A DNA stretch of 64,000 nt from a virus (IMGVR_UViG_3300033153_007754:1-64000); one strand, 5' to 3'; shown: positions 2,525-25,637, counted from the stretch's first letter. Notes: a model not told the origin generated them from the letters alone. A program made the numbers and translations.

Positions 2525-2767
2525 ATGAGTAAAATCACATTGATAGATGGTAAAAAATTCACTGGTGTTCTTGAAATAATTAGTGAATATAAAACCAGAA
2601 CTGAATGCAAAAATGGGTTAATACACGGTAAATATATAGAATGGTGGTATAATGGAAATGTGCGTTTAGAAAGACATTACAAAGATGGGGAAAAGCATGG
2701 TGATGAAACAAAATGGGATGAAGATGGTAACAAAATAAGTGAAACCTTTTATGTTGATGGTTGGTAA
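2525..2767 (+). CDS. MORN-variant repeat protein (YwqK-like) #1
   Basis: DGKKFTG cap, HGKYIEWWYNG, HGDETKWDEDG; SD GGAGG before ATG 2525. Confidence 0.8.
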   Translation: MSKITLIDGKKFTGVLEIISEYKTRTECKNGLIHGKYIEWWYNGNVRLERHYKDGEKHGDETKWDEDGNKISETFYVDGW

Positions 2768-2852
2768 CATAATAAAATAGCACACAAATCAATTCCTTAA
2801 ATAATCAATAAAACCTATAATAACCTATTAAATTTTTTAATAGGAAAATACT

Positions 2853-3698
2853 ATGGATAAAAAGAGTTATATTGTCCTGATAGATTTTAACAATTTTATG
2901 TTTAAATCTTTACATGGGGTTGCTAAGTACACACCACTAAAAAGTAAACAATTCAAAATTGAATTTGCTAAAAAAATGATAAGAGAAATGATGTATGTGA
3001 AAACGAGGTTTAATTACAAAATTAAAGATATTATAGTTTTATATGACTATAAGAATTGGCGTTTGGATGAACAAATTGACTATAAAGGTGACAGAAAGAA
3101 AAATAGAAATGATAGTAAAATAGATTTTGATTATTTTTTTAAATTTGTTGATACTTTTAGAAAAGAAATGGAAGAAGCTTTACCTTTTAATTTCTTAAAA
3201 AACTATAAATGTGAGGCTGATGATTTAATTGGTCACATTACAATCACAAATCCTGATGAAAACTTTATAATATACTCAAATGACAAGGATTTTAAGCAGC
3301 TACACACTCATAATAAGAATTTAATACAAATATCCCCAAGAAACTTTAAAGTCGTTCAGGATGACGATTATGACATCAGGATACACGCAATTGTTGGTGA
3401 TGCTGCTGATAGTGTACATAAATTAAAAAAGGGTGTTGGTGTACAAACAGCATTAAAAATATTAAAATCAAATAAATTAGAAAGTTGGCTTAAAAGTCAT
3501 AAATTAGAAGAACTTTTTGAACATAACTTAAGGATGGTTGATTTAACACGAATACCCGAACATTTAAAGAAGGAAATTGAAGTTTTATATGAAAATAGGG
3601 AACGAACTAAATTAAAAGCTTTGGTTTATTATAAATTTATTAATAAATATCTTATAGAAAACATGGAATATTCTTTTATAAGGAGTTTATATAAATGA
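2853..3698 (+). CDS. rnh: T4-like RNase H / 5'-3' exonuclease
   Basis: LIDFNN, WR..YKGDRKK, EADDLI, SNDKDF.QL, GDAAD, N..MVDL..IP motifs. Confidence 0.9.
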   Translation: MDKKSYIVLIDFNNFMFKSLHGVAKYTPLKSKQFKIEFAKKMIREMMYVKTRFNYKIKDIIVLYDYKNWRLDEQIDYKGDRKKNRNDSKIDFDYFFKFVDTFRKEMEEALPFNFLKNYKCEADDLIGHITITNPDENFIIYSNDKDFKQLHTHNKNLIQISPRNFKVVQDDDYDIRIHAIVGDAADSVHKLKKGVGVQTALKILKSNKLESWLKSHKLEELFEHNLRMVDLTRIPEHLKKEIEVLYENRERTKLKALVYYKFINKYLIENMEYSFIRSLYK

Positions 3699-3703
3699 AA
3701 GGT

Positions 3704-4183
3704 TTAAATAGTGGAAGAATATATTTGTTTCCCATTTTTATAATTTAATTCAGATTTTTTATTACCATTTTTATGCCACCAAATTTCTTTACCGTGTCTT
3801 TTACCATCTTTATAATTTATTTCAAATTCTTTATTTCCATTTTCATACCACTTAATACCAAGTGTGATTTTCCATTCGTTATATGAATGTATAGATTTTT
3901 TATTCCCATTTCTATACCATTCTGTATATTTACCATGTAATGCACCATTTTTATAATTCTTTTCTTCAAATTTAATACCATTTTCATACCATTCAATTTG
4001 TTTCCCATGTTGTTTTCCATTTTTATAATTTTCTTCAATTTTTTTATTTCCATTATCATAAAAGATAATAGATTTCCCATGTTTTTCACCATCTAAATAT
4101 TCACAATTATTATAAATTCCTGTGAATATTTCTTCTTTTAGCTCATGAACTAAGCCTGTTTCATTATTTCTTGCTACTACCAT
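3704..4183 (-). CDS. MORN-variant repeat protein #2
   Basis: GLVHELKEEIFTG cap and HGK..W..NG repeats; has its own promoter cassette. Confidence 0.85.
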   Translation of the reverse strand: MVVARNNETGLVHELKEEIFTGIYNNCEYLDGEKHGKSIIFYDNGNKKIEENYKNGKQHGKQIEWYENGIKFEEKNYKNGALHGKYTEWYRNGNKKSIHSYNEWKITLGIKWYENGNKEFEINYKDGKRHGKEIWWHKNGNKKSELNYKNGKQIYSSTI

Positions 4184-4723: not shown

Positions 4724-4771
4724 TTGGGATATATTATAATCCATTAAACATATTATCACTAAGAGGTTATT

Positions 4772-6044: not shown

Positions 6045-6115
6045 TTGACAAATCCAAATAAATCAGTATACTCTAAACAGATGGTAATTAAGCCATGATT
6101 TCGTAGGAGAATCAT
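6045..6115 (+). promoter_or_regulatory. repeated early promoter/hairpin/RBS cassette
   Basis: TTGACAAATCC..TATACTCTAAACAGATGGTAATTAAGCCATGATTTCGTAGGAGAATCAT. Confidence 0.85.
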
Positions 6116-6406: not shown

Positions 6407-7267
6407 ATGAAAACGGTTGTTGAAGATAATGGATTAACTTATGAAATCAATAAAGATGGTTTTAGTGGTTATGGTAAAAACATTAATGGAATGGAAGGTA
6501 ATTATATTAATGGAAAAAAAGAAGGAACACATAAAAGTTTTTACGAAGATGGTAAAAAACAAAGTGAAGAAAATTATAAAGATGGTAAAAGAGATGGCGA
6601 ATCTAAAACATGGTATGAAACAGGTGAGTTATATACAGAATGTTTTTCTGAAAATGGTGAAGTCAAAGAAATTTACTGGTACAGGAATGGCAATAAAGAA
6701 TGTGAATTTTATGGTAAAAATGGTTTTTTAGATGGTGAATATATTGATTGGTATATGAATGGTGATATATCTTCAGAAACACATTATATACAAGGAAAAA
6801 AACATGGACATAAAATATCATGGTTTAGAAATGGTAAAATTCGTAAAATAGAAGGCTTAAAAAATGGCGAAAAACATGGTGAATGTAAAGTGTGGTATAG
6901 GGATGGAACAAAGAAACTTAGTTGTACATATAAAAATGGAAAAAAACATGGTAAGTTTATTGAATGGAATGTGAATGGCATAAAAGAAAATGATATAGAT
7001 TTTATAGATGGTAAATGGCATGGGAAATATATTGTTTATTATTATAGTGGTGAAATAAAAGAAGAACTTCATTACAAAGATGGTTTAAAACATGGTAAAG
7101 AAAGTTGGTATTATAAAAACGGACAAATTGAATTGACATGTGAATATAAAGATAACATGAAAAGCGGTGAAGTTATATGTTATGACGAAGATGGTGAAAT
7201 TGAGACAAGAGCGGTATATATTATAGGTGTTCAAGAAAGTAGAAAAGTTTTAATTGAAAGACAATAA
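6407..7267 (+). CDS. MORN-variant repeat protein #3
   Basis: About 10 24-aa repeats; promoter TTGCAT 6327/TATAAT 6350; SD AGGAGG. Confidence 0.9.
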   Translation: MKTVVEDNGLTYEINKDGFSGYGKNINGMEGNYINGKKEGTHKSFYEDGKKQSEENYKDGKRDGESKTWYETGELYTECFSENGEVKEIYWYRNGNKECEFYGKNGFLDGEYIDWYMNGDISSETHYIQGKKHGHKISWFRNGKIRKIEGLKNGEKHGECKVWYRDGTKKLSCTYKNGKKHGKFIEWNVNGIKENDIDFIDGKWHGKYIVYYYSGEIKEELHYKDGLKHGKESWYYKNGQIELTCEYKDNMKSGEVICYDEDGEIETRAVYIIGVQESRKVLIERQ

Positions 7268-7276: not shown

Positions 7277-8251
7277 ATGAATAAAATTAAAGTACCAACA
7301 GGTGTGATTTACACAATGGAAACAGCAGACAATAAACCTTTAGAGTTTACGTCTATTGGTGATTATGGAAGTAATGCCAATGTTAAGGCTGATTTTCTGG
7401 GTTTAACAAGGGAAATAGAAGAAGTTCCAGACGGTAATGTTTTACCATTGGGTGAAAAATGGGTTGTGACTATTTCAACCCAACACGGATGTCCGCATCA
7501 CTGCCAATTTTGTGATGTGCCTTTATTAAAATTTCAGGGTAACATTTCGCTTGATAACTTAAATAAACAGGTTGTGACAGCCATAAATGAGAGGAAGGAT
7601 GTTAAATATACTAAACGGTTAAACCTACATTTGACAAGAATGGGTGAACCAAGTTGGAATCCTGATGTGATTTGGTTTGCACATGGGTTAAAAAAATTAG
7701 TTGAAACAACTGGTTTAAAATGTGATACTATACACCCAGTTTTTACAACAATGCTTCCAAACACAAATAAATTACTTGAAAATGAAATACAAATGTGGTG
7801 TAACATGAAAAATAAACATTACGAAGGTGAAGCAGGGTTACAATTTTCTATAAATTCAACATCAGATTCACAAAGAAATACAATGTTTAACAATGAATCA
7901 TTACAACTCAAAGAGATATCAGAAATTGGTGAAAGATTAATGAAACCTGTTGGTAGAAAATATGCTTTAAATTTTGCATTGGCGGATGGATATGAAGTGG
8001 ATGCAAAGAAGTTAAGAAAACTTTTTAATCCAGAAAAATTCATGGTTAAAATCACACCTATACACCAAACACAGCAGTGTATTCTTAATGGTATTAAATC
8101 ATCAAAAAAGTATTTTACACCTTATACTAAAATTGAAAAAGATTTAATTAAAGAAGGGTTTGATGTTCTAATTTTTATCCCATCAAATGAAGAAGATGTT
8201 AGCAGAATTACATGTGGGAATGCTGTTTTAGCTGAAGACCTAAAGAAATAA
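7277..8251 (+). CDS. RlmN/Cfr-like radical SAM enzyme
   Basis: ISTQHGCPHHCQFC (CxxxCxxC), MGEP, FSINS, C-terminal TCG. Confidence 0.75.
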   Translation: MNKIKVPTGVIYTMETADNKPLEFTSIGDYGSNANVKADFLGLTREIEEVPDGNVLPLGEKWVVTISTQHGCPHHCQFCDVPLLKFQGNISLDNLNKQVVTAINERKDVKYTKRLNLHLTRMGEPSWNPDVIWFAHGLKKLVETTGLKCDTIHPVFTTMLPNTNKLLENEIQMWCNMKNKHYEGEAGLQFSINSTSDSQRNTMFNNESLQLKEISEIGERLMKPVGRKYALNFALADGYEVDAKKLRKLFNPEKFMVKITPIHQTQQCILNGIKSSKKYFTPYTKIEKDLIKEGFDVLIFIPSNEEDVSRITCGNAVLAEDLKK

Positions 8252-9071: not shown

Positions 9072-9186
9072 TATTTCTTTTCTCTTAATAAATGAAATCA
9101 TAAAAGTAATTGACAAAATATGAAATAAAATATATAATAAATTGTGGTTGTAATTATGCAATTATTTATTTTCAAAGGAGAAATCT

Positions 9187-9963
9187 ATGTGTAAAAACAA
9201 TTTAATACCAGAAGGTGGTTATTTAGCCGAAAAAAAAAATGGTAAAGAGGTTTATTACAATAAGAATGGGAGAAAAGAATGGGAAATAAACTATAAAGAT
9301 GGAAAAAAAGATGGTAAAGAGTTTTTTTGGCATAAAAATGGTGATAAAGCATCAGAAGAAACTTATAAAGATGGGTTACTACATGGGGTTGAAATTGAAT
9401 GGAACGAATATGGTAGTAAACTATATGAATTAAATAACGAGAATGGGGAAAGCCATGGTATACAAACTTGGTGGTATCATAATGGCAATAAACAAACTGA
9501 AATATTTTATAAGCATGGTAAAAGACATGGTAAACACTCTGAATGGCATGAAAATGGTAAGAAAAGTTTTGAATCAATTTACGAAAACGCCAAGCCGATT
9601 GGGAAATCTTTTCTTTGGTATGAGAATGGAAATAAAGAAAATGAAATAAACTATGAAGCTGGTAAAAAAAATGGTAAAGAAATAAGATGGTATTATGATG
9701 GCAAGATAAAATGTGAATTGCAGTATGAAAATGGTAATAGGTATGGTGTTCATACTTATTGGTATAAGAATGGAAATAAACAATCTGAAACAAATTATGT
9801 GAATGATGTAGAAGATGGTATTCAAATTGCTTGGTATGAGAATGGAAATAAAAGATTTGAACGGAATTTTAAGAAGTGTATACTTCATGGTAAATATACA
9901 GAATGGCATGAAAATGGTGAAATAAAAAATATTAGTGAATATATTAAGGGTGAAAAAATATGA
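9187..9963 (+). CDS. MORN-variant repeat protein #5
   Basis: About 10 regular repeats; promoter TTGACA 9110/TATAAT 9133. Confidence 0.9.
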   Translation: MCKNNLIPEGGYLAEKKNGKEVYYNKNGRKEWEINYKDGKKDGKEFFWHKNGDKASEETYKDGLLHGVEIEWNEYGSKLYELNNENGESHGIQTWWYHNGNKQTEIFYKHGKRHGKHSEWHENGKKSFESIYENAKPIGKSFLWYENGNKENEINYEAGKKNGKEIRWYYDGKIKCELQYENGNRYGVHTYWYKNGNKQSETNYVNDVEDGIQIAWYENGNKRFERNFKKCILHGKYTEWHENGEIKNISEYIKGEKI

Positions 9964-10412
9964 CTCAATCTCAATTGGAAAGCCTTGTGGTTTGGGGTTT
10001 ATTATCATTACCATTAGCAGTTGTTTTTTATTCTATTCATAAATTAATTTTAGCAATGGAAGCGAATTTAAATTCTAGGGGTTGTCTTGCCAAACCACAA
10101 GAAACAATATTATATATAGACTCAATTTCTAATATAAAATTAAAAAATAAATTAGAACTTAAAATATCAGGGTATGAAACTGGTGAATTGTTTGGTGAGA
10201 TTGATGGTTATGATTTAGTAGTTTTTGGTCACAATGAGGTAGGGATTTTGGATGATTTTAAAACGTATTTGAATGATGCATATAACAATTATTTAGCTAA
10301 TAAAGAATTACTTAATGAAATGCGTTATAGAAATGGTATTTATAATTTGAGTGAATATTCTGAATTCCTAAAAGAAAATAATTTTTTTATATTAATATTA
10401 AAACAGGGGTAA
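9960..10412 (+). CDS. hypothetical membrane-anchored protein
   Basis: N-terminal hydrophobic helix; ATGA overlap with upstream gene. Confidence 0.6.
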   Translation: MTQSQLESLVVWGLLSLPLAVVFYSIHKLILAMEANLNSRGCLAKPQETILYIDSISNIKLKNKLELKISGYETGELFGEIDGYDLVVFGHNEVGILDDFKTYLNDAYNNYLANKELLNEMRYRNGIYNLSEYSEFLKENNFFILILKQG

Positions 10413-10415: not shown

Positions 10416-11285
10416 ATGGATGAAATGAAAGTGTGTTTTGTTGGTGGGGTTTATCGTCAAGTTATGATTAAACCCTATACAGGTGAAATTAAAAATAATA
10501 AAATTAAAGGTTTTATTAAGGATGGAAAGCTACATGGGAAAATTACCAATTATAATGATGAAGGTGAGATATACAATGTAGTTGATTACAAAGATGGGAA
10601 AGAACATGGTAAAGAAACATGGTGGAATGAAAATGGAAAGAAATGGATAGAAGTAAGTTATGAGAATGGTAAAAAAAATGGGTTATATACAATATGGTAT
10701 AGTAATGGTAAAAAAAGAAAGGAAACAAATTATCTAAATGATGTTATGGATGGATTAGAAACAATCTGGTATGAAAATGGCAATATCCAAAGTGAATATA
10801 ATTATAAAAAATGTCACATTCTGCATGGAAAACAAATTAAATATCATGAAAATGGAAATAAAGAAAGGGAATTAACTTATATAGATAATAAAATAAATGG
10901 TAAAGAAACTATCTGGTATGAAAATGGTATTAAATCAATGGAAATAAATGTTAAGGATGGTGTACAAGATGGTGTTTCTATGTCTTGGTATCAGGGTGGT
11001 GAGAAAAAAAGCTATAAGATGTATAAAAACGGTCAATTACATGGTACATTTACTAGGTTTTATCCTAATGGTAATAAGCAATTAGAATCAGAATATGAAG
11101 ATGGTGATATGCAGGGTTTCGGTTTTACTTGGCATCCTAATGGTAAAATCGAATCAAATACAAATCATAAAGATGGTAAAAAAAATGGTAAAGAAATTTG
11201 GTGGCATGATAGTGGAAAAAAAGCTTGTGAAGAAAATTATAAAGATGGTAAAAGAGATGGCGATATAAAGTGGTGGGTAAAATAA
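10416..11285 (+). CDS. MORN-variant repeat protein #6
   Basis: KPYTG cap plus repeats. Confidence 0.9.
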   Translation: MDEMKVCFVGGVYRQVMIKPYTGEIKNNKIKGFIKDGKLHGKITNYNDEGEIYNVVDYKDGKEHGKETWWNENGKKWIEVSYENGKKNGLYTIWYSNGKKRKETNYLNDVMDGLETIWYENGNIQSEYNYKKCHILHGKQIKYHENGNKERELTYIDNKINGKETIWYENGIKSMEINVKDGVQDGVSMSWYQGGEKKSYKMYKNGQLHGTFTRFYPNGNKQLESEYEDGDMQGFGFTWHPNGKIESNTNHKDGKKNGKEIWWHDSGKKACEENYKDGKRDGDIKWWVK

Positions 11286-13686: not shown

Positions 13687-13791
13687 ATATAAAAAGACAT
13701 CTTCAGTAAAATAATCTTTCAAATTGACAAAATAATAAACAAATGATATAGTATTATAACAATGATTTTGTTGTTTTTATAGGAGCATATT

Positions 13792-15421: not shown

Positions 15422-15883
15422 ATGGAAAATGTTGTCAATTATGAGAACACTGGGTTGAAGGGTGGTTTAATGTATGAATTAAAAGAAAACCCATTTACTG
15501 GTAAGTTTGTCGATTTATATGATGATGGTAATAAATTTTGTGAGATAGATTATGTAGATGGTAAAAAACATGGTAAAGAAATTCATTGGTATGAAAATGG
15601 TAAAAGATATAAAGAATGTAATTACGAAAATGGTAAACGAAATGGTGAACAAACTTATTGGCATAAAAATGGGGATATTCATATAAAAAGAAATTATCTT
15701 AATTATTTTAAAAATGGTTATGAATTTATTTGGTATGAAAATGGTGGTAAACATATAGAACGAAATTATGTATTTGGTTTAAAAGATGGGGAAGAAATAC
15801 ATTGGGATAAAAGTGGTAAGGAAGTAGTAAAATATTATTATAAAGATGGTGGTTTACTTAAAAAGGGGTGTGAAAATGGATAG
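15422..15883 (+). CDS. MORN-variant repeat protein #10
   Basis: GLMYELKENPFTG cap plus repeats. Confidence 0.9.
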   Translation: MENVVNYENTGLKGGLMYELKENPFTGKFVDLYDDGNKFCEIDYVDGKKHGKEIHWYENGKRYKECNYENGKRNGEQTYWHKNGDIHIKRNYLNYFKNGYEFIWYENGGKHIERNYVFGLKDGEEIHWDKSGKEVVKYYYKDGGLLKKGCENG

Positions 15884-16625
15884 AAAGATAGACAACACAA
15901 ATACACGTGAAATTATAAATTATTATGATGATTTTAACAAGAAATCGGAATGCACACTTGTTAATTATAAACGTGAAGGCAAATATACAAAATGGAAATA
16001 CAACAATGTTTTGTATTATGAAGAATATTATCAATATGGTAAATTAAATGGTAAACAAACCTATTGGTATAAAAATGGTAATAAAAGAAGTGTTTATAAT
16101 TTTGTGAATGGTAAAAAACGTGGTGAGTTTTGTGAATGGTGGGATAATGGTAACAAAAAAAGAATTGGTATTTCATGTGCTCTTTTAGATTTAAAAAGTT
16201 GGTATAGAAGTGGTAAAAGGAAATCTGAAGTTTTCTATAAAAATAAAAACAATAAGAGTGATTTTGAGTTAATAACATGGTATGAAAATGGTAACACTGA
16301 ATTTATAGAGTTTTATAAAAGGGGTTTAGCTGATGGTATTCAAAAAATGTTTTATAAAAATGGGAATAAAAAACACGAAGTAAACACAAAAAATGGTATA
16401 GTATATGGTATCACTTTAAGATGGCATAAAAATGGTGAGTTGGAATACAAAGGTTTTTTAAATGACGACAAACAAGAGGGTGTTATATTAGGGTGGTATG
16501 ATAATGGTAACAAACAATACGAATTAAATTATAAAGATGATAAAAAACATGGTGCATGTGTTTGGTTCTACAAAGATGGAAGTAAACAATATGAATATGA
16601 ATATTTAGATGATATCATAGTATAA
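15876..16625 (+). CDS. MORN-variant repeat protein #11
   Basis: Repeats; SD AGGGG. Confidence 0.9.
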   Translation: MDRKIDNTNTREIINYYDDFNKKSECTLVNYKREGKYTKWKYNNVLYYEEYYQYGKLNGKQTYWYKNGNKRSVYNFVNGKKRGEFCEWWDNGNKKRIGISCALLDLKSWYRSGKRKSEVFYKNKNNKSDFELITWYENGNTEFIEFYKRGLADGIQKMFYKNGNKKHEVNTKNGIVYGITLRWHKNGELEYKGFLNDDKQEGVILGWYDNGNKQYELNYKDDKKHGACVWFYKDGSKQYEYEYLDDIIV

Positions 16626-16701
16626 TTCCTTGACAAATTAATTTTTAAATATACAATGTATTATATAGGTGGTATTATACCACCATTCACAGGAGGATAT
16701 T

Positions 16702-17286
16702 ATGTGTAGAATAGCAGTTGATGATGGAAAATTTTATGAATTAAAAGAAAAACCATTTACAGGTGAAGTTAATGAGAAATATACAACTGGTTACATTAAA
16801 AATGGTTTAAAACATGGCTTATGGATTGAATATTATTTTTCAATGGAAACCCAAAAAGAAAGTGAAGAAAATTATAAAGATGGTCTTAAACATGGGAAAG
16901 AAATTGTTTGGTTTAGTAATGGGGTAAAGAAACTGGAAAGGGATTATTTAAATGATGTTTTGGTAGGTAAACAAGCTGAATGGTTTAAAAATGGTAATAA
17001 CAAATCTGAAGAAAATTATAAAGATGGGAAACAAGATGGTTTACAAATTGATTGGTACAAAAATGGAAATAAATATATAGAAACAAATTACAAAGATGGG
17101 AAAGAACATGGTAAGAAAACATGGTGGTATGAGAATGGTAATAAAAAACTGGAAATAAATTATAAAGATGGTGAAGAAGATGGTTTACAAATTTGGTGGG
17201 ATGAAGATGGTAATAAAAAATTAGAAAAATACTACAAAGATGGTAAAGAAATTATATCATTTAATTTGGGGCTTAATTATGCGTAA
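16702..17286 (+). CDS. MORN-variant repeat protein #12
   Basis: GKFYELKEKPFTG cap; promoter TTGACA 16630/TACAAT 16652; leader hairpin GGTGGTA-TTA-TACCACC; SD AGGAGG. Confidence 0.9.
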   Translation: MCRIAVDDGKFYELKEKPFTGEVNEKYTTGYIKNGLKHGLWIEYYFSMETQKESEENYKDGLKHGKEIVWFSNGVKKLERDYLNDVLVGKQAEWFKNGNNKSEENYKDGKQDGLQIDWYKNGNKYIETNYKDGKEHGKKTWWYENGNKKLEINYKDGEEDGLQIWWDEDGNKKLEKYYKDGKEIISFNLGLNYA

Positions 17287-17761
17287 AGATAATCTTAACA
17301 AAGTTCACATCACTACTTTTTTTGATGAAGAACATGAGAATAAAAAAACTGATTACACACTTCTTAACTGGAAGTTGGATGGCAAATATACCACATGGTT
17401 AAATAACAATCTTTTGTTTTCAATACAGCAGTACAAGGATGGAAAATTAGAAGGGAAATATATTGAATATCACCTAAATGGTGCAATAAAAAGAATCGCT
17501 TATTACAAAGACGATTTATTAAATGGTCAATTAAAATCTTTTTATGAAAATGGTAATAAAAAAGTTGAGTGTACTCTTGTAAATGATGGTATAAATGGTA
17601 AGTATATAAGATGGCATGAAAATGGGAATAAAGAAACAGAATGTAATTACAAAGATGGTTTAAAAGATGGTGAATATATTAGATACCATGAAGATGGTAG
17701 TATCGAATTTAAAGAATTTTGGGAAAATGATGAAATATTAAAAGATAATAATAAAAAGTAA
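17279..17761 (+). CDS. MORN-variant repeat protein #13
   Basis: Repeats; N-terminus resembles #11 (K...TL.N.K..GKYT.W..NN.L). Confidence 0.85.
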   Translation: MRKDNLNKVHITTFFDEEHENKKTDYTLLNWKLDGKYTTWLNNNLLFSIQQYKDGKLEGKYIEYHLNGAIKRIAYYKDDLLNGQLKSFYENGNKKVECTLVNDGINGKYIRWHENGNKETECNYKDGLKDGEYIRYHEDGSIEFKEFWENDEILKDNNKK

Positions 17762-17769
17762 AATAACCC

Positions 17770-17840
17770 TTGATAAATCCGAAAAAAATCCGTATATTAT
17801 AAGCAGATGGTAATTAAGCCATAATCCAAGGGAGGATAAT
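17770..17840 (+). promoter_or_regulatory. repeated early promoter/hairpin/RBS cassette
   Basis: TTGATAAATCC..TATATTATAAGCAGATGGTAATTAAGCCAT..GGGAGGATAAT. Confidence 0.85.
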
Positions 17841-18404
17841 ATGAGTAATGAAAACAGTAAATCAAGCGAATTTAGCGACTTTGTTGTAAAAGGTGGTGTT
17901 ATATACGAAAGACAACAAAAAGGTTATACAGGGTCAATAATAAGGCGTTGGGATGATGAAGATGCTGCTGATGATGGTGAAATTAGAAGTATATATAACT
18001 TCAAGAATGGGTTGAAAGATGGTAAATGCATAAAATACCATTGTTATGAAAAAGGTGTGGTTTCAGAAGAAACTAATTATAAAGATGGTGAATATCATGG
18101 TAAATATACTGAATGGGAATGGGACGGAAGCTTAATAAGAGAATATAATTTTAAGAATGGAAAATCAGATGGTATTATGGTTAAATATTATAAAGATGGG
18201 GATAAAGGAAAAAAACATATTCTTACACATAAAAACGATTTACCTCATGGTTTAAGTCAAATGTTTTATGAAGATGGCACTAAAGCTTGTGAAACAACGT
18301 ATGTAAATGGAAAAAAGCATGGTAAAGAAATTTGGTGGGATGAAGATGGCAATAAAGAATCAGAAACACTATACGAAAATGGTGTTAAAATTAAAGAATC
18401 TTAA
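17841..18404 (+). CDS. MORN-variant repeat protein #14
   Basis: GVIYE..GYTG cap plus repeats. Confidence 0.9.
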   Translation: MSNENSKSSEFSDFVVKGGVIYERQQKGYTGSIIRRWDDEDAADDGEIRSIYNFKNGLKDGKCIKYHCYEKGVVSEETNYKDGEYHGKYTEWEWDGSLIREYNFKNGKSDGIMVKYYKDGDKGKKHILTHKNDLPHGLSQMFYEDGTKACETTYVNGKKHGKEIWWDEDGNKESETLYENGVKIKES

Positions 18405-18491
18405 ATAAATCTAAAAAAAAACTTAACAATCCCAAAAAAATCTGTATAATATCAATAAGTGATAATCAAGTCACTATTTATAGGGGATATT

Positions 18492-19280
18492 ATGAATAAA
18501 ACTGATTTCGACAATTGTGTGATAAAAAACGGTGTATTATACGAAATAAAAAACAGTGGTTACACTGGGGTTGTCATTAGACAATATGATGATAAAATAA
18601 TTAGTGAAGGGGTTTATAAAAATGGTTTAATACATGGTAAAAACATTCATTATGATGAAAATGGTAAAAAAGAATATGAAATTAATTATAAGAATGGAAA
18701 ACAACATGGTGAATACACTAAATGGTTTGATAATGGTGGGAAACAAACGCAAATGTTTTATGCTGATGGTAAATTAGATGGCATACTTATTGAGTGGGAT
18801 GAAAATGGAAATAAAAGACGTGAAATAAATTATAATAATAAACACACACATTGGTATGAAAATGGTAATAAAAAATGTGAGTGTAACTTAAAAAACAATA
18901 ATAAATATGGTAAAGAAATTCGTTGGTATGAAGATGGAAACATCAAAAGTGAAAATAACCATGAAAATGGTTTATTGCATGGTGTTCAAAAAGAATGGTA
19001 TAAAGATGGTAAGAAAAAAAGTAAGGCGAATTATAGAAATGATAGATTAAATGGTAAAGAAATTATTTGGTTTAGTAATGGTAACAAAAAAAGTGAAACT
19101 AATTATAGAAATGATATGCCAATTGGGAAGGTTAATTTATATCATGAAAATGGGAATAGGAAAAAAGAAATGAATTACAAAAAGGGTGTATTAAATGGTG
19201 ATTATATGTCTTGGTATGAAGATGGGAAAACAAAAAGTCTTTTTTATTATGAAAATGGCAAGAAAAATTATAGTTTATAG
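18492..19280 (+). CDS. MORN-variant repeat protein #15
   Basis: GVLYEI..GYTG cap; variant cassette at 18423-18491. Confidence 0.9.
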   Translation: MNKTDFDNCVIKNGVLYEIKNSGYTGVVIRQYDDKIISEGVYKNGLIHGKNIHYDENGKKEYEINYKNGKQHGEYTKWFDNGGKQTQMFYADGKLDGILIEWDENGNKRREINYNNKHTHWYENGNKKCECNLKNNNKYGKEIRWYEDGNIKSENNHENGLLHGVQKEWYKDGKKKSKANYRNDRLNGKEIIWFSNGNKKSETNYRNDMPIGKVNLYHENGNRKKEMNYKKGVLNGDYMSWYEDGKTKSLFYYENGKKNYSL

Positions 19281-19289
19281 GAGATTAAA

Positions 19290-19736
19290 ATGAATAAAAT
19301 TGATATTAATGATTGTATGGTAATTGATGGTGTATTATATCAAATTGTTGATAATGAATATACTGGTGTTGTTACTGAATAATGGGGTAATGGTGCAAAA
19401 TGTAGTGAGACAAACTATAACAATGGTTTAAAAGATGGTAAAGAAATTTATTGGTATGAAAATGGTAATAAAAAAACTGAATTAAATTATAAAAATGGTA
19501 AACGAAATGGTGAACACACAGAATGGCATGGAAATGGTAATGTATTCATAAAATGTTTTTTTAAAAATGATAAAATAGAGGGTGTTGTTAACGTATATTA
19601 TAATAATGGAAATAAAAAAAATGAATCTAATTATAAAGATGGTGTAAAACATGGAATATATACCGAATGGGATAACAAAGGTAATGAAGTAACTAAAGAA
19701 AAATATGAAAATGGTTTGTTGGTGGTTATACGATAA
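19290..19736 (+). pseudogene. MORN-variant repeat gene #16 with in-frame TAA at 19380-19382
   Basis: SD AGGAG; MNKIDINDCMVIDGVLYQIVDNEYTGVVTE*WGNG..., frame stays open with perfect repeats to TAA 19734-19736. Confidence 0.85.
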
Positions 19737-19862
19737 TGATTCAACAAGGGAAGATGGTGCAACTGGTTTCTGGTACGACTAAAGAATCAAAATAATTAAA
19801 AACAATACACATTTCATTAAATAATCAAAACACATTATAATATTCCTTTTGGGGGTATCACT

Positions 19863-20687
19863 TTGAGTGTCAAAAACAATCTTAAAACAGATAATATTTT
19901 ATATAAAAAAGATGTATTTAAATTAGGTGGTATTTTATATACATTAAAAAAACGTGAAATATTTACAGGAAGTATTATTGAAAAATTCCCTTCTGGTGGG
20001 ATGAAATTTAATATAAAATATGAAAATGGTAAAAGACACGGTAAAGAAATTTGGTGGCATGAAAATGGCAACAGAAGTTATGAATGTGATTATGTAAATG
20101 GTAAAAGGGATGGTTATATTAATACATATCACAAAAGTGGTGCAATTCATGAAAAAATCCCATATTTAGATGATGATAAAAATGGAACACATGAAACTTG
20201 GTATGAAAATGGGAATAAATATATAGAACGAAATTATAAATCTGGCATACAAGAGGGTAAAGAAATTTGGTGGCATGAAAACGGTGAAATCAAGATGGTA
20301 TCATGTTATGTGAATGATAAACATATCGGTGAAAAAATAGTCTTTTATATGGATGGTAATAAAAAAGACTTATACTATACTGATGGTAATGGGGATTTCA
20401 GACACACAGAATGGTATAGAAATGGTGAGAAAGAATGTGAAACAAATTATGTAAATGATGAAAAACATGGTCTTCAAATTCAGTGGTATAATAATGGCTG
20501 CAAATACATAGAAACAAATTATAAAAATGGTTTAAAACATGGTAAAGAAACATGGTGGTATAGAAATGGTAAAATAGATGTAGAAGAAAACTATGTAAAT
20601 GGAAAAAAACATGGTATACAAACTTGGTGGTATAGAAATGGTAAGAAAGAATGTGAATATGAATATAAAAATGGTGAGGTGTTATAA
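19863..20687 (+). CDS. MORN-variant repeat protein #17
   Basis: GILY..IFTG cap plus repeats; TTG start. Confidence 0.9.
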   Translation: MSVKNNLKTDNILYKKDVFKLGGILYTLKKREIFTGSIIEKFPSGGMKFNIKYENGKRHGKEIWWHENGNRSYECDYVNGKRDGYINTYHKSGAIHEKIPYLDDDKNGTHETWYENGNKYIERNYKSGIQEGKEIWWHENGEIKMVSCYVNDKHIGEKIVFYMDGNKKDLYYTDGNGDFRHTEWYRNGEKECETNYVNDEKHGLQIQWYNNGCKYIETNYKNGLKHGKETWWYRNGKIDVEENYVNGKKHGIQTWWYRNGKKECEYEYKNGEVL

Positions 20688-21454
20688 TGAAAATAGTTGC
20701 AGAATATAACGGTAAATTTTATGAACTAAAAGAAATTACATATACAGGTCAAGCAATTAATGTTGTGGGTGAAGATGGTAGTTATAAAAATGGTTTGAGA
20801 AATGGAAAATTTAAAAGTTTTTATGAGAATGGTAAAGTGAAATATGAGGTTATATTTAAAGATGGCGAATTTGATGGTAAATATACGAAATGGTATGATA
20901 ATGGAAATAAAGAATCTGAAACTAATTTTGATAATGGTGTAGTAAATGGTAAACATATTGTATGGTGGGAAAATGGAAATATAAAAATTGATTCATCATA
21001 TGTTAATGGTAAATTGGATGGTGTAGAACTTTGGTTTTATAAAAATGGTGGTAGCCACTGCAAATTTAATTATAAGGGTTGTTTGTCGCATGGGCTTCAA
21101 ACAAGATGGCATGAGAATGGAAACAAGGAATTAGAACGAAATTATAATGAGGGTAAACGACACGGTAAAGAAATAAAATGGTATTATTACGGGAATATAA
21201 AATGTGTTGCAAATTATAAGGATGATAAATTTCATGGTAACGATAGTGAATGGTATGAAAATGGTAAGAAAAGATATGAATGTAATTATAAAGATGGGGA
21301 TAAACACGGTAAAGAATTAGAATTTTTTGAGAATGGTAATATACGATATGAACGTAATCATAAAGATGGTTATTTCCATGGTGATAGCATTGAATATTAT
21401 AAAGATGGAAGAAAAAAAAATATGTGTGTTTATGTTGATGGATATATTAAATAA
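20687..21454 (+). CDS. MORN-variant repeat protein #18
   Basis: GKFYELKEITYTG cap plus repeats. Confidence 0.9.
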   Translation: MKIVAEYNGKFYELKEITYTGQAINVVGEDGSYKNGLRNGKFKSFYENGKVKYEVIFKDGEFDGKYTKWYDNGNKESETNFDNGVVNGKHIVWWENGNIKIDSSYVNGKLDGVELWFYKNGGSHCKFNYKGCLSHGLQTRWHENGNKELERNYNEGKRHGKEIKWYYYGNIKCVANYKDDKFHGNDSEWYENGKKRYECNYKDGDKHGKELEFFENGNIRYERNHKDGYFHGDSIEYYKDGRKKNMCVYVDGYIK

Positions 21455-21477
21455 TAAAATATGATAAGGTGTAAAAC

Positions 21478-21936
21478 ATGTTTAAAATAAATGGTGAAAA
21501 CTTCACAGGTGTGGTTGAAAAAAGTGGTGAATATAAGATTGAATATAAAGATGGTTTAAAAGATGGTACAGAAATAATATTGTATAGTAATGGAAATATG
21601 AAGAATTTAATAAATTATAAAAATGGTTTATTGGATGGTAAATTTTGTGAATGGGTTTGGTTTGGAGAAAAAGATGTTGTTAAATTTTTTAAGGATGGTA
21701 AAAGGCATGGATTAGAAACTTCTTGGTATTACAATGGCAATAAGGAATCAGAAGTAAATTATAAAGATGGTAAAAAACATGGTAAGGCTACTTGGTGGTT
21801 CTATAATGGTAAAATAGAATATGAAGGTAATTATATCGATGGTGAAAAAGAAGGTAGGTTTACTAGTTGGCTTGAAGATGGTGAAATTGAATATTTTATT
21901 AATTTTGTTAATGGTGTTAAACAAGATAATGTATAG
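21478..21936 (+). CDS. MORN-variant repeat protein #19
   Basis: NGENFTG cap plus repeats. Confidence 0.9.
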   Translation: MFKINGENFTGVVEKSGEYKIEYKDGLKDGTEIILYSNGNMKNLINYKNGLLDGKFCEWVWFGEKDVVKFFKDGKRHGLETSWYYNGNKESEVNYKDGKKHGKATWWFYNGKIEYEGNYIDGEKEGRFTSWLEDGEIEYFINFVNGVKQDNV

Positions 21937-21944
21937 GGGATATA

Positions 21945-22895
21945 ATGACTGAAAAGATTGTAAATAATGGTAAAAATGTGGTTATTAAAGATGGCTTATT
22001 ACATATATTAACGACAAAACCATATACAGGTGTAATTGTGTATAATTCTGTTAGTGGTGAAAAACGTGTTGAGACAAGTTACAAAGATGGGAAAGAACAT
22101 GGTAAAGAAATTTGGTATTATGACACTGGTGAAATAATATCCGAAAGGAATTACAAGTATAATAAAAAACATGGTAAATTTATCGATAGATATAGAAATG
22201 GAAATAAAAAATATGAACTCTTTTTTGTGGATGGGTTACAAGAAGGTAAGGAATTTTGGTGGTATGAAGATGGAACATGTATTACATATCGTGTTGGTGG
22301 TAAAAAAGAAGTTGAAATTAATTATAAGAATGGAAAAAAACATGGTAAAGAAATATGGTATTATAGAAAGATGAATAAAGAAATTGAGGTTGATTATAAA
22401 GATGGCTTGAAACATGGGAAATATATTGTTTGTGATGAATTTGGAAGTGTATTGAGATTAATAGACTATAAAAATGGTAAAAAAGATGGTAAAGAATTAG
22501 GATGGTATTGGAATGGTAATAAAGAATTTGATATAGACTATAAAAATGGTGAAAATCATGGTCAATATAAACAATGGTACCGTGATGGCAATAAACACAT
22601 TCTTTCAAATTACTTGGATGGGGAAAGACATGGCGAATGTTTTTGTTGGTATGAAAATGGAATAATATCTAGCAAAGAAAACTATAAATATGGTAAATTG
22701 GATGGTCTTTATTTAAGTTACTATCGAAATGGTAACCCTTGGCTTGAAATTAATTATAAAGATAATTTACAACATGGTAAAACAATGGTGTATTATGAAA
22801 ATGGTAATAAAGAATATGAAGATTATTATGAATTTGATGTAGAAAAAAAACGCAGGAAAAAATGGTTTTCTTTTGGTTTAAGAAAATTTTGGTAA
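21945..22895 (+). CDS. MORN-variant repeat protein #20
   Basis: DGLLH..KPYTG cap; basic/aromatic C-terminal tail. Confidence 0.9.
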   Translation: MTEKIVNNGKNVVIKDGLLHILTTKPYTGVIVYNSVSGEKRVETSYKDGKEHGKEIWYYDTGEIISERNYKYNKKHGKFIDRYRNGNKKYELFFVDGLQEGKEFWWYEDGTCITYRVGGKKEVEINYKNGKKHGKEIWYYRKMNKEIEVDYKDGLKHGKYIVCDEFGSVLRLIDYKNGKKDGKELGWYWNGNKEFDIDYKNGENHGQYKQWYRDGNKHILSNYLDGERHGECFCWYENGIISSKENYKYGKLDGLYLSYYRNGNPWLEINYKDNLQHGKTMVYYENGNKEYEDYYEFDVEKKRRKKWFSFGLRKFW

Positions 22896-22940
22896 ATATA
22901 AAAAATATAATATAATTAGATTTTACTTATAAGGAATAAA

Positions 22941-23618
22941 ATGAAAGAAGGAAATCCAAAATATTTAACAGAAATGAGTGACGGCTTATTACATGAAATA
23001 AACCAAAAGCCATACACAGGTGTTTTAAGAACTAGATTCGCTGATGGCAACATTAAATCTGAAGAATACTATAAAGATGGTTTGAAGGATGGAAAATATT
23101 CACAGTGGAATGATGGCGGGGTTTTATTATCAGAGAAAAATTACAGAAATGGGTTAAAACATGGTCGACAACATCGAATGTATGGGGAAGGTCTTGTCGA
23201 ATATATATATAATTATAAAGATGGCAAACCAATTAATGAGTTCACTGATTATTATGAAGATGGTAATATTGAACGAAAAATATTATTTAATGATGATGGA
23301 AAAAAACATGGGAAATGTTTTAATAATTTTGAGAATAATAAAAGACACATCGAAGAAGAATATGAAAATGGTAAATCAATCGGGCAATATAAACAATGGT
23401 ATGAAAATGGGAATGTGAATCTAATTGTAAACTATGAAAATGGTGTACAGGAAGGTGAAACAAGAAGGTATCATGAAAATGGTGAACTTCATATTAAATT
23501 GTTTTATAAAAATGGTCTTGAAGATGGTCTACAAAGTAATTATGATACTGATGGGAAATTAATCAAAACTTATCTGTATAGTCAAGGTGAATTAATTGAT
23601 GCTTCAGATGGTGAATAA
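22941..23618 (+). CDS. MORN-variant repeat protein #21
   Basis: DGLLHEINQKPYTG cap plus repeats. Confidence 0.9.
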   Translation: MKEGNPKYLTEMSDGLLHEINQKPYTGVLRTRFADGNIKSEEYYKDGLKDGKYSQWNDGGVLLSEKNYRNGLKHGRQHRMYGEGLVEYIYNYKDGKPINEFTDYYEDGNIERKILFNDDGKKHGKCFNNFENNKRHIEEEYENGKSIGQYKQWYENGNVNLIVNYENGVQEGETRRYHENGELHIKLFYKNGLEDGLQSNYDTDGKLIKTYLYSQGELIDASDGE

Positions 23619-24303
23619 CATATATAATAATTTTATTTAAGGGGTAAAAAAATGGAAATAGTAGTAGATGATAAGAATCTTGTGGTTGAAAATGGTGTGG
23701 TATATGAGTTGACACCACTTGTGTTTACTGGGAAGGGTATTTATACGGCTCAAAATGGACGAACACGTGAAACAATTTATGTGGATGGAAAGAGGCATGG
23801 CAAAGAAATTACTAGGTATGAAGATGGTGTTATACTATCTGAATGTAATTACGAAAATGGTGAATTGAATGGTAAAAAATATATATGGGATGAAGATGGA
23901 ACTAAAAGACTTGAATATAATTATAAAGATGGAAAAGAACATGGGTGTAGTTTAGAGTGGAATAAAAAAGGTGTTTTGAATATGGAAGAAAACTATGTAA
24001 ATGGAAAAAAACATGGTAAACATATTTTATGTTGGGAAAATGGTGATAAAATGTGTGAAGAAAATTATATTGATGGAAAAAAGGATGGAATTCAGAGCCA
24101 TTGGTACGAAAATGATAGTAAACATTTTTTGGAAACATATCAAAATGGTGAACTCAATGGAAAATATATTATTTGGGGTGAAGATGGCAATAAAGAAAGT
24201 GAAATGATTTACAAAGATGGTGTTAAGATGGTTTATTACACGGAAGTCAAAGATGGTACTAAGGGCGAATAACATATATAATAATTTTATTTAAGGGGTA
24301 AAA
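23613..24303 (+). repeat. 37-bp exact direct repeat (23613-23649 and 24267-24303) flanking MORN gene #22
   Basis: GAATAACATATATAATAATTTTATTTAAGGGGTAAAA occurs twice. Confidence 0.9.
23652..24272 (+). CDS. MORN-variant repeat protein #22
   Basis: GVVYEL..FTG cap plus repeats. Confidence 0.9.
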   Translation: MEIVVDDKNLVVENGVVYELTPLVFTGKGIYTAQNGRTRETIYVDGKRHGKEITRYEDGVILSECNYENGELNGKKYIWDEDGTKRLEYNYKDGKEHGCSLEWNKKGVLNMEENYVNGKKHGKHILCWENGDKMCEENYIDGKKDGIQSHWYENDSKHFLETYQNGELNGKYIIWGEDGNKESEMIYKDGVKMVYYTEVKDGTKGE

Positions 24304-25637
24304 TGAAAAGAGTTGGTTTTAAGGATGTTGTTACAAAAAAAGATGGTCTGATATATGAAGTAAGACAAAATCCATTCACTGGTATAATTGAAAGTGATGA
24401 TGAGAGTGGTGTTTTTTTTAAAGATGTTATTAAAGATGGTTCACCACATGGTGTTTGTAAAGAATGGTATGAAGATGGAAATAAAAAAATGACCACAAGG
24501 TTTAAAAATGGGTTACTGGAAGGTGAAAGAATTAAATACCATCAGGGTGGTGGAGTATCTGAACGTGCTACATACAAAAATGATATTTTAGATGGTAAAA
24601 AACTAGTATTTAATGAACATGGTGTAAAACAAATGGATATTGATTACAAAGATGGTTTTTTCCATGGTAAAGAAATTTTATATTATTCAGATGGTTCAAA
24701 ACATACTGAAATAGACTACAAGAAAGGTTTAGTAGATGGTGAATTCAAATTCTGGTATAAAAATGGTTTATTAGGGTTTTGTAGGAAATTTGAAAATAAC
24801 ATTGAAGTTAATGGACAGGTTGATTATTTTTGGAGTGATGGAACTAAAAAAAAGACATATTATATTGTAAATGGTGTTAAAGATGGTGATGAAGTAATTT
24901 GGAATGAAGAAGGTAAAAAGGTATTTGAAACTACATGGAAGGAAGGAAAACAAGATGGTGAATCTACTACATGGCATTATATTAAAACAATAGCTAGAAT
25001 ATATGAAAAAGGTCTTTTAATATCAGAAAAGAATTATGAAAATGATATATTACATGGTGTTGTTCGTACATGGTGGAACACTGGCAACAAAAGAAGTTTC
25101 GTTGAATATATTGTTGGAAAAAAATATGGTAAAAGACTTCTTTGGTATAAAGATGGAAGTAAAGAAACAGAAGAAAATTATATGAATGATGTGTTAAATG
25201 GTAAATCTATTCACTATTATTATAGCATTGAAGATGATATTGCTGATGGCACTAAAATGTCTGAATATGAATTTAAGGATGGGAAATTAGATGGTAGACA
25301 ATTAAAGTATCATGAAAATGGTAAGAAGTCTTCACAAATAAATTATAATGATGGTAAAGAACATGGTGTGTTAACCACTTGGTATGAAGATGGCAATAAG
25401 AGAAGTGAAGTGAGTTATAAAGATGGTAAAAGACACGGTAAACACATTGAATGGCATGAAAATGGTAATAAAAAAACGGAATTAAATTATAAAAATGGCC
25501 TGTTACATGGAATGGGTTTTCATTGGGATGAAGAGGGTTCACTAATTTATGAAATAGATTATGACAATGAAACAGACGGTTGTTTAATATTCCCACCATT
25601 TCCGGTGGTTACTAAAGAATCCGAAGGGAATGAATAA
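24303..25637 (+). CDS. MORN-variant repeat protein #23 (longest)
   Basis: DGLIYEVRQNPFTG cap plus about 16 repeats. Confidence 0.9.
   Translation: MKRVGFKDVVTKKDGLIYEVRQNPFTGIIESDDESGVFFKDVIKDGSPHGVCKEWYEDGNKKMTTRFKNGLLEGERIKYHQGGGVSERATYKNDILDGKKLVFNEHGVKQMDIDYKDGFFHGKEILYYSDGSKHTEIDYKKGLVDGEFKFWYKNGLLGFCRKFENNIEVNGQVDYFWSDGTKKKTYYIVNGVKDGDEVIWNEEGKKVFETTWKEGKQDGESTTWHYIKTIARIYEKGLLISEKNYENDILHGVVRTWWNTGNKRSFVEYIVGKKYGKRLLWYKDGSKETEENYMNDVLNGKSIHYYYSIEDDIADGTKMSEYEFKDGKLDGRQLKYHENGKKSSQINYNDGKEHGVLTTWYEDGNKRSEVSYKDGKRHGKHIEWHENGNKKTELNYKNGLLHGMGFHWDEEGSLIYEIDYDNETDGCLIFPPFPVVTKESEGNE

Follow-up and report, generated by a model that had tools for sequence, protein, structure and literature searches.

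An uncultured T4-like myovirus with a 153.5-kb, 27% GC genome carries 27 genes of the MORN_2 (PF07661, YwqK-like) repeat family, 26 of them intact and one broken, which together take up 11.9% of the genome (~18 kb). The family is old, each of its copies is individually maintained, and its turnover is slow, not that of a rapid gene accordion. Our preferred reading, to which we assign a probability of roughly 0.42, is that this lineage-specific family of stand-alone MORN_2 proteins constitutes a premade panel of early cytoplasmic inhibitors or adaptors directed against host proteins.

The window, that is, the whole 64-kb stretch analysed, is the opening part of this genome. The record is complete (terminal repeats, CheckV 100%) and contains the T4-like core genes for portal, gp23 capsid, sheath, TerL terminase, DNA polymerase, RNR and DnaB; the MORN_2 genes are phage-borne, as an earlier note on this DNA had claimed. 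Translations, Pfam searches and an HMM of the repeat, trained on the window, place 22 intact genes and one broken gene between 2486 and 25637, and both this tally of 23 and the run of 14 consecutive copies from 15422 to 25637 agree with that note. The proteins in the window are 93–444 aa long, and the copies, with the promoter-like sites assigned to them, are as follows.

2486..2767, plus strand: MORN_2, 93 aa, 3 repeats; TTG start (alternative ATG at 2513); PF07661 33 bits, repeat HMM
3704..4183, minus strand: MORN_2, 159 aa, 6 repeats; PF07661 matches, repeat HMM E 1.7e-48
6407..7267, plus strand: MORN_2, 286 aa, 11 repeats; PF07661 89 bits
8277..9071, plus strand: divergent MORN_2, 264 aa, 8 repeats, 35-aa non-repeat tail; PF07661 45.7 bits
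9187..9963, plus strand: MORN_2, 258 aa, 10 repeats; Pfam and repeat HMM; 12/12 sigma70-like promoter at 9110-9138
10416..11285, plus strand: MORN_2, 289 aa, 11 repeats; PF07661 98.6 bits
11270..12190, plus strand: MORN_2, 306 aa, GTG start, 11 repeats; PF07661 64.8 bits
12201..13328, plus strand: MORN_2, 375 aa, 13 repeats; PF07661 94.9 bits
13792..14157, plus strand: MORN_2, 121 aa, 4 repeats; PF07661 23.1 bits (below the cut-off), repeat HMM E 1.6e-23; promoter-like site (11/12) at 13724-13752
15422..15883, plus strand: MORN_2, 153 aa, type-A N-terminal cap; opens a coupled A-B pair
15876..16625, plus strand: MORN_2, 249 aa, type-B N-terminus; ATG at 15876 (longest ORF from 15846), its start overlapping the stop of the preceding gene by 8 nt
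16669..17286, plus strand: MORN_2, 205 aa, type-A cap; GTG start uncertain; promoter-like site (11/12) at 16630-16657
17279..17761, plus strand: MORN_2, 160 aa, type-B N-terminus; ATG at 17279 (longest ORF from 17240); second A-B pair
17841..18404, plus strand: MORN_2, 187 aa; repeat HMM; promoter-hairpin-RBS cassette upstream
18459..19280, plus strand: MORN_2, 273 aa, 10 repeats; GTG start uncertain (ATG at 18492); promoter-like site (11/12) at 18423-18450
19290..19739, plus strand: disrupted MORN_2; in-frame TAA at 19380-19382, PF07661 matches at 19431-19568
19863..20687, plus strand: MORN_2, 274 aa, TTG start, 9 repeats; repeat HMM
20687..21454, plus strand: MORN_2, 255 aa, 10 repeats; the protein modelled with AF2
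21478..21936, plus strand: MORN_2, 152 aa, 6 repeats; repeat HMM
21945..22895, plus strand: MORN_2, 316 aa, 12 repeats, basic C-terminal tail; repeat HMM
22941..23618, plus strand: MORN_2, 225 aa, 7 repeats; repeat HMM
23652..24272, plus strand: MORN_2, 206 aa; exact 37-bp direct repeats on both sides, at 23613-23649 and 24267-24303
24303..25637, plus strand: MORN_2, 444 aa, 15 repeats; PF07661 78.5 bits; largest copy and end of the array

Run over the whole genome, the repeat HMM found four further copies beyond the window, all on the minus strand:

87490-87852, minus strand: MORN_2 copy
137276-137575, minus strand: MORN_2 copy
137553-138614, minus strand: MORN_2 copy
138623-139282, minus strand: MORN_2 copy

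Within the window, 3704..4183 is the only copy on the minus strand. According to its frame translation and a codon check, the disrupted copy at 19290 retains its ATG, cap and repeats intact and is broken by one TAA alone. Neighbouring or interleaved with the array are genes for gp30.3, an RNase H-like exonuclease, a phage radical-SAM protein, DUF262 N-domains, DUF285, a guanylate-kinase-like protein and unknowns.

The proteins share a simple plan, 3–15 hairpins of 24 residues behind a short N-terminal cap, with no enzymatic or export domain. The ~208 repeat units keep a strict 24-aa (72-nt) period with the module G-x4-[WYF]-[YHW]-x-[ND]-G-x-[KI]-x2-E-x-N-[YF]-x-[ND]-G-x2-[HDN]; the 24-aa period described earlier stands, but the G-x3 spacing given with it yields 23 residues and has to be corrected to G-x4. 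The assignment to MORN_2 was borne out by the HMM scan, in which nine of the ten genes tested passed the PF07661 gathering cut-off (29.6 bits, whole-protein score) with 33–98.6 bits; the exception, the 121-aa gene at 13792, stays below it yet has its four repeats by the custom HMM. A YwqK-type cap, G-x-x-Y-E-x(3-4)-P-F-T-G, can be recognized by eye in the printed N-termini of about two-thirds of the 27 copies and is also part of the consensus derived jointly with bacterial homologues, and the best outside matches (30–41% identity) are named YwqK-family antitoxin (COG2849) by NCBI or JGI. The paralogues vary in pI (5.1–9.7), length and tails.

The AF2 model of the 20687..21454 protein (pLDDT 91.7) is all beta, with 21 strands paired in hairpins, and its top PDB matches in Foldseek are MORN1 and junctophilin, including a junctophilin–peptide complex (E 3e-10 to 1e-5). 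By this model, the proteins have the MORN fold, with the hairpins joined into one elongated beta-sheet. The same elongated antiparallel hairpin sheet, with a partner-binding role, occurs in eukaryotic MORN1, MORN4, junctophilins and radial-spoke proteins (6t69, 6t4d, 7rxq), although these contain canonical PF02493 instead of MORN_2, are 16–26% identical and are usually fused to other domains. The pattern of fixed scaffold and variable strand positions highlighted in the earlier note is indeed present, but 713 repeats of unrelated bacterial homologues give the same per-column entropy profile; the pattern is thus a property of the family and does not speak for diversifying selection in the phage. 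Since the variable columns match those of the family at large, they do not demonstrate target-driven diversification. Mapping these columns onto the structure would discriminate poorly, because both faces of the single-layer sheet are solvent-exposed.

Several genes appear to possess their own sigma70-type promoters, as had been proposed, with consensus matches of 11–12/12 in the intergenic gaps that precede 9187, 13792, 16669 and 18459 and of 10/12 before 17841; overall, the 118 promoter matches are barely above the 97–99 found in shuffles of this AT-rich DNA. The promoter-hairpin-RBS cassette at 17770-17840 recurs at 6045-6100, at other accessory gene(s). The T4 late-promoter motif TATAAATA does not occur in the array but precedes the portal and capsid genes, and the array neighbours gp30.3 and the RNase H-like exonuclease are early-type genes. 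Because of the sigma70-like promoters, the shared cassette and the lack of the late motif in the array, the MORN_2 genes are probably expressed early from host-type sigma70-like promoters, in keeping with the timing suggested earlier. The hydropathy heuristic (Kyte-Doolittle, 19-residue stretch, threshold 1.6) revealed no TM helix or signal peptide in these proteins; as the maximum is 0.86 and no N-terminus is hydrophobic, they are predicted to be cytoplasmic, again as claimed.

No MORN_2 array this large was found among 50,697 GenBank phage records or in the literature searched, which agrees with the earlier statement that no phage system of this size had been described. MORN_2 matches are absent from 50,694 of the 50,697 records, related T4-like phages lack the family, and no relative of this phage that would allow a comparison of copy number was found, the best capsid match being 43% identical and located on an 11.7-kb contig. 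The same repeat family occurs in three tandem copies in a Helicobacter equorum prophage, in one 'MORN variant protein' of the Vibrio jumbo phage 2.275.O and in a few IMG/VR contigs (1–3 copies each); however, these other phage records hold 1–3 copies compared to 27 here, and none is related to this phage.

Larger sets are known from bacteria and giant viruses, and the background given on them and on YwqK in the earlier note checks out. Fusobacterium and Helicobacter bilis show an expansion of MORN2-domain proteins, with tens of often clustered paralogues per genome, and those of Fusobacterium mostly have signal sequences, are surface- or vesicle-located and are grouped with type V autotransporters and with FadA (PMC4222103; bioRxiv 10.1101/534297). 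The Pfam family and the many clustered paralogues are shared, whereas the phage copies are devoid of an export signal and set among early phage genes; there are no adhesin genes in the window, and no link between this phage and Fusobacterium was found. The same fold and variant repeat, in at least 20 copies per genome, are found in the giant viruses Orpheovirus, Hyperionvirus, Marseillevirus and Pithovirus. Orpheovirus provides at least 20 of the best 50 BFVD matches, and a 1.06-Mb giant-virus bin in IMG/VR contains at least 25 matches to one window protein. With 26 intact copies and one broken copy in 153.5 kb, the phage likewise has at least 20 paralogues of a repeat family in one viral genome; giant viruses, however, have eukaryotic hosts and megabase genomes in which the family share is small, compared to 12% in this 153-kb bacteriophage.

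The idea of a panel of inhibitors or adaptors draws primarily on YwqK of Bacillus subtilis, which co-purifies with and neutralises YwqJ, a T7SS-delivered ssDNA cytidine deaminase toxin (bioRxiv 10.64898/2026.09.29.755374). Because YwqK binds its toxin, and MORN4 and junctophilin bind peptides, we propose by analogy a putative role for the phage proteins as binders, decoy antitoxins or anti-defence factors. Transcribed early from host-type sigma70-like promoters and remaining in the cytoplasm, as the sequence signals suggest, each protein would bind its own distinct partner stoichiometrically through the surface of its sheet, the likeliest targets being toxin-type effectors of defence, abortive-infection or toxin–antitoxin systems. 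YwqK resembles the phage proteins in its MORN_2 repeat and its small cytoplasmic cap-plus-repeats build, and their best outside matches bear its name, but it is a single gene that shares a T7SS operon with its toxin, whereas the lytic phage has 26 copies and no toxin partner. We count in favour of the panel that all but one of the 27 ORFs are intact in so AT-rich a genome, that they occupy so much of it and that the paralogues are so diverse. Against it stands the fact that the sole characterised family member is an immunity protein with its own toxin, a pairing absent here: no toxin domain was found among the interleaved and flanking genes, and none of the copies has a defence gene as its partner. 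A broader version, in which repertoires of 20–50 MORN-type hairpin-repeat proteins exist independently in several unrelated lineages of large phages as a germline-encoded panel of inhibitors of host toxin-type immune effectors, is doubtful; if true, such panels would be the phages' equivalent of bacterial poly-immunity loci and of giant-virus repeat-protein families, with this phage among the clearest complete examples.

Adaptors without any defence role are rather unlikely. The proteins would then be host-takeover scaffolds organizing host or phage machinery, such as membrane, envelope, replication or assembly sites, which fits their best structural matches (the scaffold proteins MORN1, junctophilins and radial-spoke proteins), the large and presumably host-manipulating MORN families of giant viruses, and the basic amphipathic tail of one copy. 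However, the need for 26 divergent scaffolds is hard to see, and related T4-like phages manage without them.

Orphan immunity arrays, such as the acquired interbacterial defence loci of Bacteroidales, resemble the tandem divergent copies seen here. The phage genes could, as a phage-borne version of such orphan poly-immunity loci, confer true immunity, neutralising the polymorphic toxins that neighbouring bacteria inject by T6SS, T7SS or CDI and thereby keeping the infected cell alive until lysis. YwqK is exactly such a protein, acting against a T7SS-delivered deaminase, and the closest homologues are annotated accordingly; nevertheless, we consider this improbable, because protection lasting one latent period is a small gain for a lytic phage, nothing suggests that the host lives under such attack, and the array contains no toxin remnants.

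The paralogues share 28–50% protein identity and are at least as distant from one another as from bacterial proteins. At the DNA level their repeat units are 60–75% identical, and exact matches from one gene to another reach 37 nt at most. A recent gene accordion, as in poxvirus K3L, is recognized by near-identical tandem copies and copy-number differences among close relatives, and the accordion postulated earlier finds no support in recent duplicates. Turnover has left traces: one fresh pseudogene, the exact 37-bp repeat around one gene and the duplicated two-gene (A-B) unit. The pseudogene and the 37-bp repeat, together with an excess of short exact patches between copies (79 of at least 21 nt, compared to 31 ± 6.5 under a synonymous-resampling null), would also fit a largely neutral proliferation of paralogues spread by unequal recombination and with little individual function. 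This has poor odds, given that all but one of the 27 copies have stayed intact in spite of their deep divergence in a genome where stop codons arise easily, and that the packaging constraint on phage genomes makes 18 kb of useless DNA unlikely.

Small soluble proteins could also be packaged. T4-like phages inject internal proteins, among them T4 IPI*, which counters host defences. That the MORN_2 proteins are injected with the DNA or decorate the virion is, however, very improbable, considering the distribution of the late-promoter motif, the position of the array on the opposite strand and far from the structural modules, and the lack of a visible common capsid-targeting N-terminus. Finally, repeat families are prone to mis-assembly, but an assembly artefact or bacterial contamination of the viral bin is hardly credible, as the single contig has terminal repeats, the array is flanked on either side by phage core genes, the gp30.3, exonuclease and phage radical-SAM genes are interleaved with it, and its repeat units are as divergent as described, with no exact match between genes exceeding 37 nt.

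The 22 intact genes of MORN_2 repeats (PF07661, the YwqK-like beta-hairpin repeat) that lie between positions 2486 and 25637, hereafter the array, were called from six-frame ORFs and their translations, Pfam and a repeat HMM built on the window's own units. These agree with the tally of an earlier note, made from the sequence by itself, of 22 intact genes and one disrupted gene with 14 copies in succession, the unbroken run covering 15422-25637. The disrupted copy (19290-19739) retains its start, its repeats and its cap, the short N-terminal segment ahead of the repeats, and is interrupted by one in-frame TAA at 19380-19382; one intact copy in the window (3704-4183) lies on the minus strand. 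Two ORFs that seem to overlap the preceding gene, at 15846 and 17240, are assigned ATG starts at 15876 and 17279, with 8 nt of overlap with the preceding stop in both cases; these genes are probably translationally coupled. Beyond the window there are four further copies, one at 87.5 kb and three adjoining at 137.3-139.3 kb, one of the latter being a very divergent copy of 353 aa. Altogether, the 26 intact MORN_2 genes amount to 18.3 kb, or 11.9% of the phage genome, and they fill 69% of the stretch 2486-25637.

Features of the phage genome (window coordinates unless marked as genome coordinates)
1231-1824: stand-alone DUF262/GmrSD_N (ParB-like) protein, N-terminal domain only
1821-2507: homologue of T4 gp30.3 (PF08010, E 3.5e-40), extended C-terminally by ~80 aa, directly upstream of the first MORN gene
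2853-3698: RNase H-like exonuclease
7277-8251: radical-SAM-like gene (phrog_24834, E 2e-113), between MORN genes
9960-10412: non-MORN gene without known family
13315-13686: non-MORN gene without known family
14228-14875: second stand-alone DUF262/GmrSD_N (ParB-like) protein, N-terminal domain only
14872-15411: DUF285 repeat protein (PF03382, E 1.6e-50), immediately ahead of the run of 14 consecutive copies
25654-26840: 203-aa gene of no known family and, coupled with it, a guanylate-kinase-like gene (PF00625, E 7e-12)
46263-47882, minus strand: IS605 OrfB/TnpB (Cas12f1-like_TNB) gene
genome 87490-87852: lone MORN_2 copy, 120 aa
genome 137276-139282, minus strand: mini-array of three adjacent MORN_2 genes

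The array is encoded by a phage, as had been proposed, and this part of the finding is solid because the record, a single contig of 153,500 bp of which the window is the first 64 kb, ends in direct terminal repeats (114 bp, exact), has a CheckV completeness of 100%, and contains T4-type core genes. PHROG scans identified the portal, gp23-type major head protein, tail sheath and large terminase, and likewise DNA polymerase, ribonucleotide reductase and DnaB helicase. The capsid protein is ~25% identical to capsids of T4-like cyanophages, vibriophages and campylophages; the GC content is ~27%, and a search of the phage for tRNA genes returned none. An assembly artefact, which the earlier note had allowed for, is not the explanation of the array. 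The repeat units are mutually 60-75% identical in DNA and no exact match between different genes exceeds 37 nt, therefore the assembler faced no ambiguity; moreover, T4-type genes (gp30.3 and the RNase H-like exonuclease) and a gene of a phage radical-SAM family are interspersed with the MORN_2 genes, which likewise speaks against an artefact.

All MORN_2 proteins of the phage consist of a short cap, repeats and variable short tails, with no other parts; roughly two thirds of them have G-x-x-Y-E-x(3-4)-P-F-T-G as their cap, as judged by eye from printed N-termini. The ~208 repeat units keep a strict period of 24 residues (155 of 182 spacings) and have the consensus G-K-E-I-x-W-Y-E-N-G-N-K-K-S-E-x-N-Y-K-[ND]-G-K-K-[HDN]; the previously described 24-aa module thus stands, but its motif as written was one residue short of this consensus. 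The fold is documented by an AlphaFold2 model of the 255-aa protein encoded at 20687-21454 (mean pLDDT 91.7), for which paralogues and outside homologues were aligned: after the first 30 residues, which score with low confidence, it is made up entirely of beta-hairpins. Its Foldseek neighbours include MORN1 of Toxoplasma, Plasmodium and Trypanosoma, and junctophilins, among them a junctophilin-peptide complex, and the matches among viral proteins come mostly from giant viruses (Orpheovirus, Hyperionvirus, Marseillevirus, Pithovirus), with few phage singletons. At the sequence level, no homologue was found in the PDB, PADLOC gave no match to the MORN proteins, and in NCBIfam only the LIC20035 adhesin model of Leptospira showed similarity, below threshold.

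Two properties of the array had been put forward as arguments for a binder library, namely its column variability and its expansion and contraction like an accordion, and neither provides evidence for one. Fixed scaffold positions (G1, W6, G10, Y18, G21) and free positions (3, 5, 13, 14, 16) do alternate as described; however, when the per-column entropy of 184 phage units was compared with that of 713 units from ~120 unrelated bacterial and metagenomic homologues, the same columns were fixed or free in both sets, the two profiles were nearly equal, and the period was 24 in either case. Variability is therefore a trait of the MORN_2 family rather than a signature of diversification in this phage. 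Assigning the variable columns to a face of the sheet by hairpin register gave conflicting results that depend on the turn assumed.

The paralogues are 28-50% identical and resemble one another no more closely than they do the YwqK-family proteins of bacteria, their synonymous sites are saturated (too divergent for dN/dS), and no recent duplicates were found among them, which argues against an accordion still in active motion. Slow turnover has left some traces: the pseudogene at 19290-19739 with its single stop codon; an exact 37-bp direct repeat at 23613 and 24267, comprising a last codon, stop, spacer and Shine-Dalgarno and bracketing the gene 23652-24272; and two coupled pairs of adjacent genes (15422 and 15876; 16669 and 17279), in which the first member has one type of cap and the second members have a distinctive N-terminus in common. 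Exact inter-gene DNA patches of at least 21 nt are also in excess, with 79 observed, after two overlap artefacts were taken out, against 31 ± 6.5 under a synonymous-codon resampling null; because this null ignores codon-context bias, the excess argues only weakly for residual homology or micro-conversion.

As to where and when these proteins act, the absence of signal peptides and transmembrane helices that had been reported holds, as none of the MORN_2 proteins begins with a hydrophobic segment or exceeds 0.86 on the Kyte-Doolittle scale over any 19 residues. The sigma70-type promoters attributed to several genes were also recovered, with consensus matches of 11-12/12 in the intergenic gaps preceding 9187, 13792, 16669 and 18459 and of 10/12 in the gap preceding 17841. 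The last of these gaps (17770-17840) shares with 6045-6100 a cassette of a sigma70-like promoter, the hairpin-forming string CAGATGGTAATTAAGCCAT and an RBS, which precedes a MORN gene in the former and a small unrelated ORF in the latter. Minus-strand matches to 'TTTACC-N17-TATAAT' were rejected as promoters, being the reverse complement of a repeated coding motif. The T4 late-promoter motif TATAAATA precedes the portal gene, the capsid gene and nine others at a distance of at most 80 nt, but precedes no array gene. Judging from hydropathy, the sigma70-like matches and the lack of the late motif in the array, expression early and in the cytoplasm is thus the best reading.

Our full-text literature searches found no description of phage MORN or YwqK gene arrays, and only 3 of 50,697 GenBank phage records match either of two query paralogues (a prophage of Helicobacter equorum, where three copies stand in tandem, a fragment of 1.5 kb, and a jumbo phage of Vibrio whose single copy is annotated "MORN variant protein"), in keeping with the earlier statement that no phage system of such size is known. 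That so few records match, and that a marine study found MORN repeats in long-read viral data at 37 times their frequency in assemblies (PMC9238414), illustrates how reference collections under-represent phage repeat-gene arrays. Scanning 2.9 million IMG/VR contigs for the motif gave ten stretches, and other phage-size contigs carry 1-3 MORN_2 copies each. Giant viruses resemble this phage both in the MORN_2 variant and in its dense tandem arrangement, as seen in a 1.47-Mb IMG/VR record, which has two loci of 13 kb with seven genes apiece, and in a 1.06-Mb bin that gave 25 matches or more. The array is real, striking and, at this scale, undescribed in phages; the protein family and its precedent in giant viruses are already known.

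A role has been established for one member of the family only, YwqK, which confers immunity to its cognate toxin YwqJ, an ssDNA cytidine deaminase delivered by the T7SS; the two proteins co-purify (bioRxiv 10.64898/2026.09.29.755374). For the array, the genes, their integrity, the fold and the phage setting are established, whereas early and cytosolic expression is read from sequence signals; solely by analogy with YwqK, the proteins may be stoichiometric protein binders, most likely directed at host toxin-type effectors, a chain of reasoning to which, as a whole, we tentatively assign a probability of about 0.4. Other candidate explanations are that the proteins confer immunity to incoming interbacterial toxins, have scaffolding or takeover roles, or associate with the particle, or that the copies have proliferated near-neutrally. 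In Campylobacter jejuni exposed to a T4-like phage, the most strongly induced operon holds a YwqK-like host gene (PMC6024767), and in Fusobacterium, where MORN_2 is hugely expanded as it is in giant viruses, most of the proteins have signal sequences and no function has been assigned to them (bioRxiv 10.1101/534297). Should the array be a true panel of binders, it would represent a new and compact class of factors for counter-defence or host takeover in phages, and would offer a natural library of binding scaffolds that are small and stable and consist of a single sheet; functional work here would give MORN_2 proteins a first functional handle.

Relatives of the phage were sought in IMG/VR, INPHARED and a set of 5.8 billion proteins with the capsid protein and a three-sequence capsid alignment, and the nearest match was a capsid of 43% identity, encoded on a contig of 11.7 kb that lacks MORN genes; a search of JGI metagenomes for orthologues of the 444-aa copy found none. 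Synteny through the embedded radical-SAM gene led to unrelated phages, six of ~40 kb in IMG/VR without MORN genes (53% identity), and this gene is 54% identical to one of Bacteroides phage Versailles. MORN_2 genes sharing the motif are spread over many phyla (26-38% identity over full-length matches), and no evidence points to Fusobacterium as the host. TnpB has no close relative among 185,579 species genomes. NCBI assembly GCA_029940435.1 contains, on a contig of 2.3 kb, a DNA copy of the gene with 94% identity whose flank matches in part, pointing to either a close relative of the phage or an IS that is shared; at the protein level, a match of 63% identity is encoded on a bacterial contig of 26% GC.

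Among the neighbouring genes, the guanylate-kinase-like pair comes directly after the last MORN gene, and the DUF285 protein constitutes a second repeat family, of leucine-rich type, in the same putatively early region. The two DUF262/GmrSD_N proteins have their best PADLOC similarity to the defence proteins NsnA and PD-T4-2_A; shortened in this way, phage-borne domains that resemble defence proteins could act as decoys or as nucleases. The genes 9960-10412 and 13315-13686 overlap the preceding MORN stop by 4 and 14 nt, respectively, and the former encodes an N-terminal hydrophobic stretch resembling a membrane helix.
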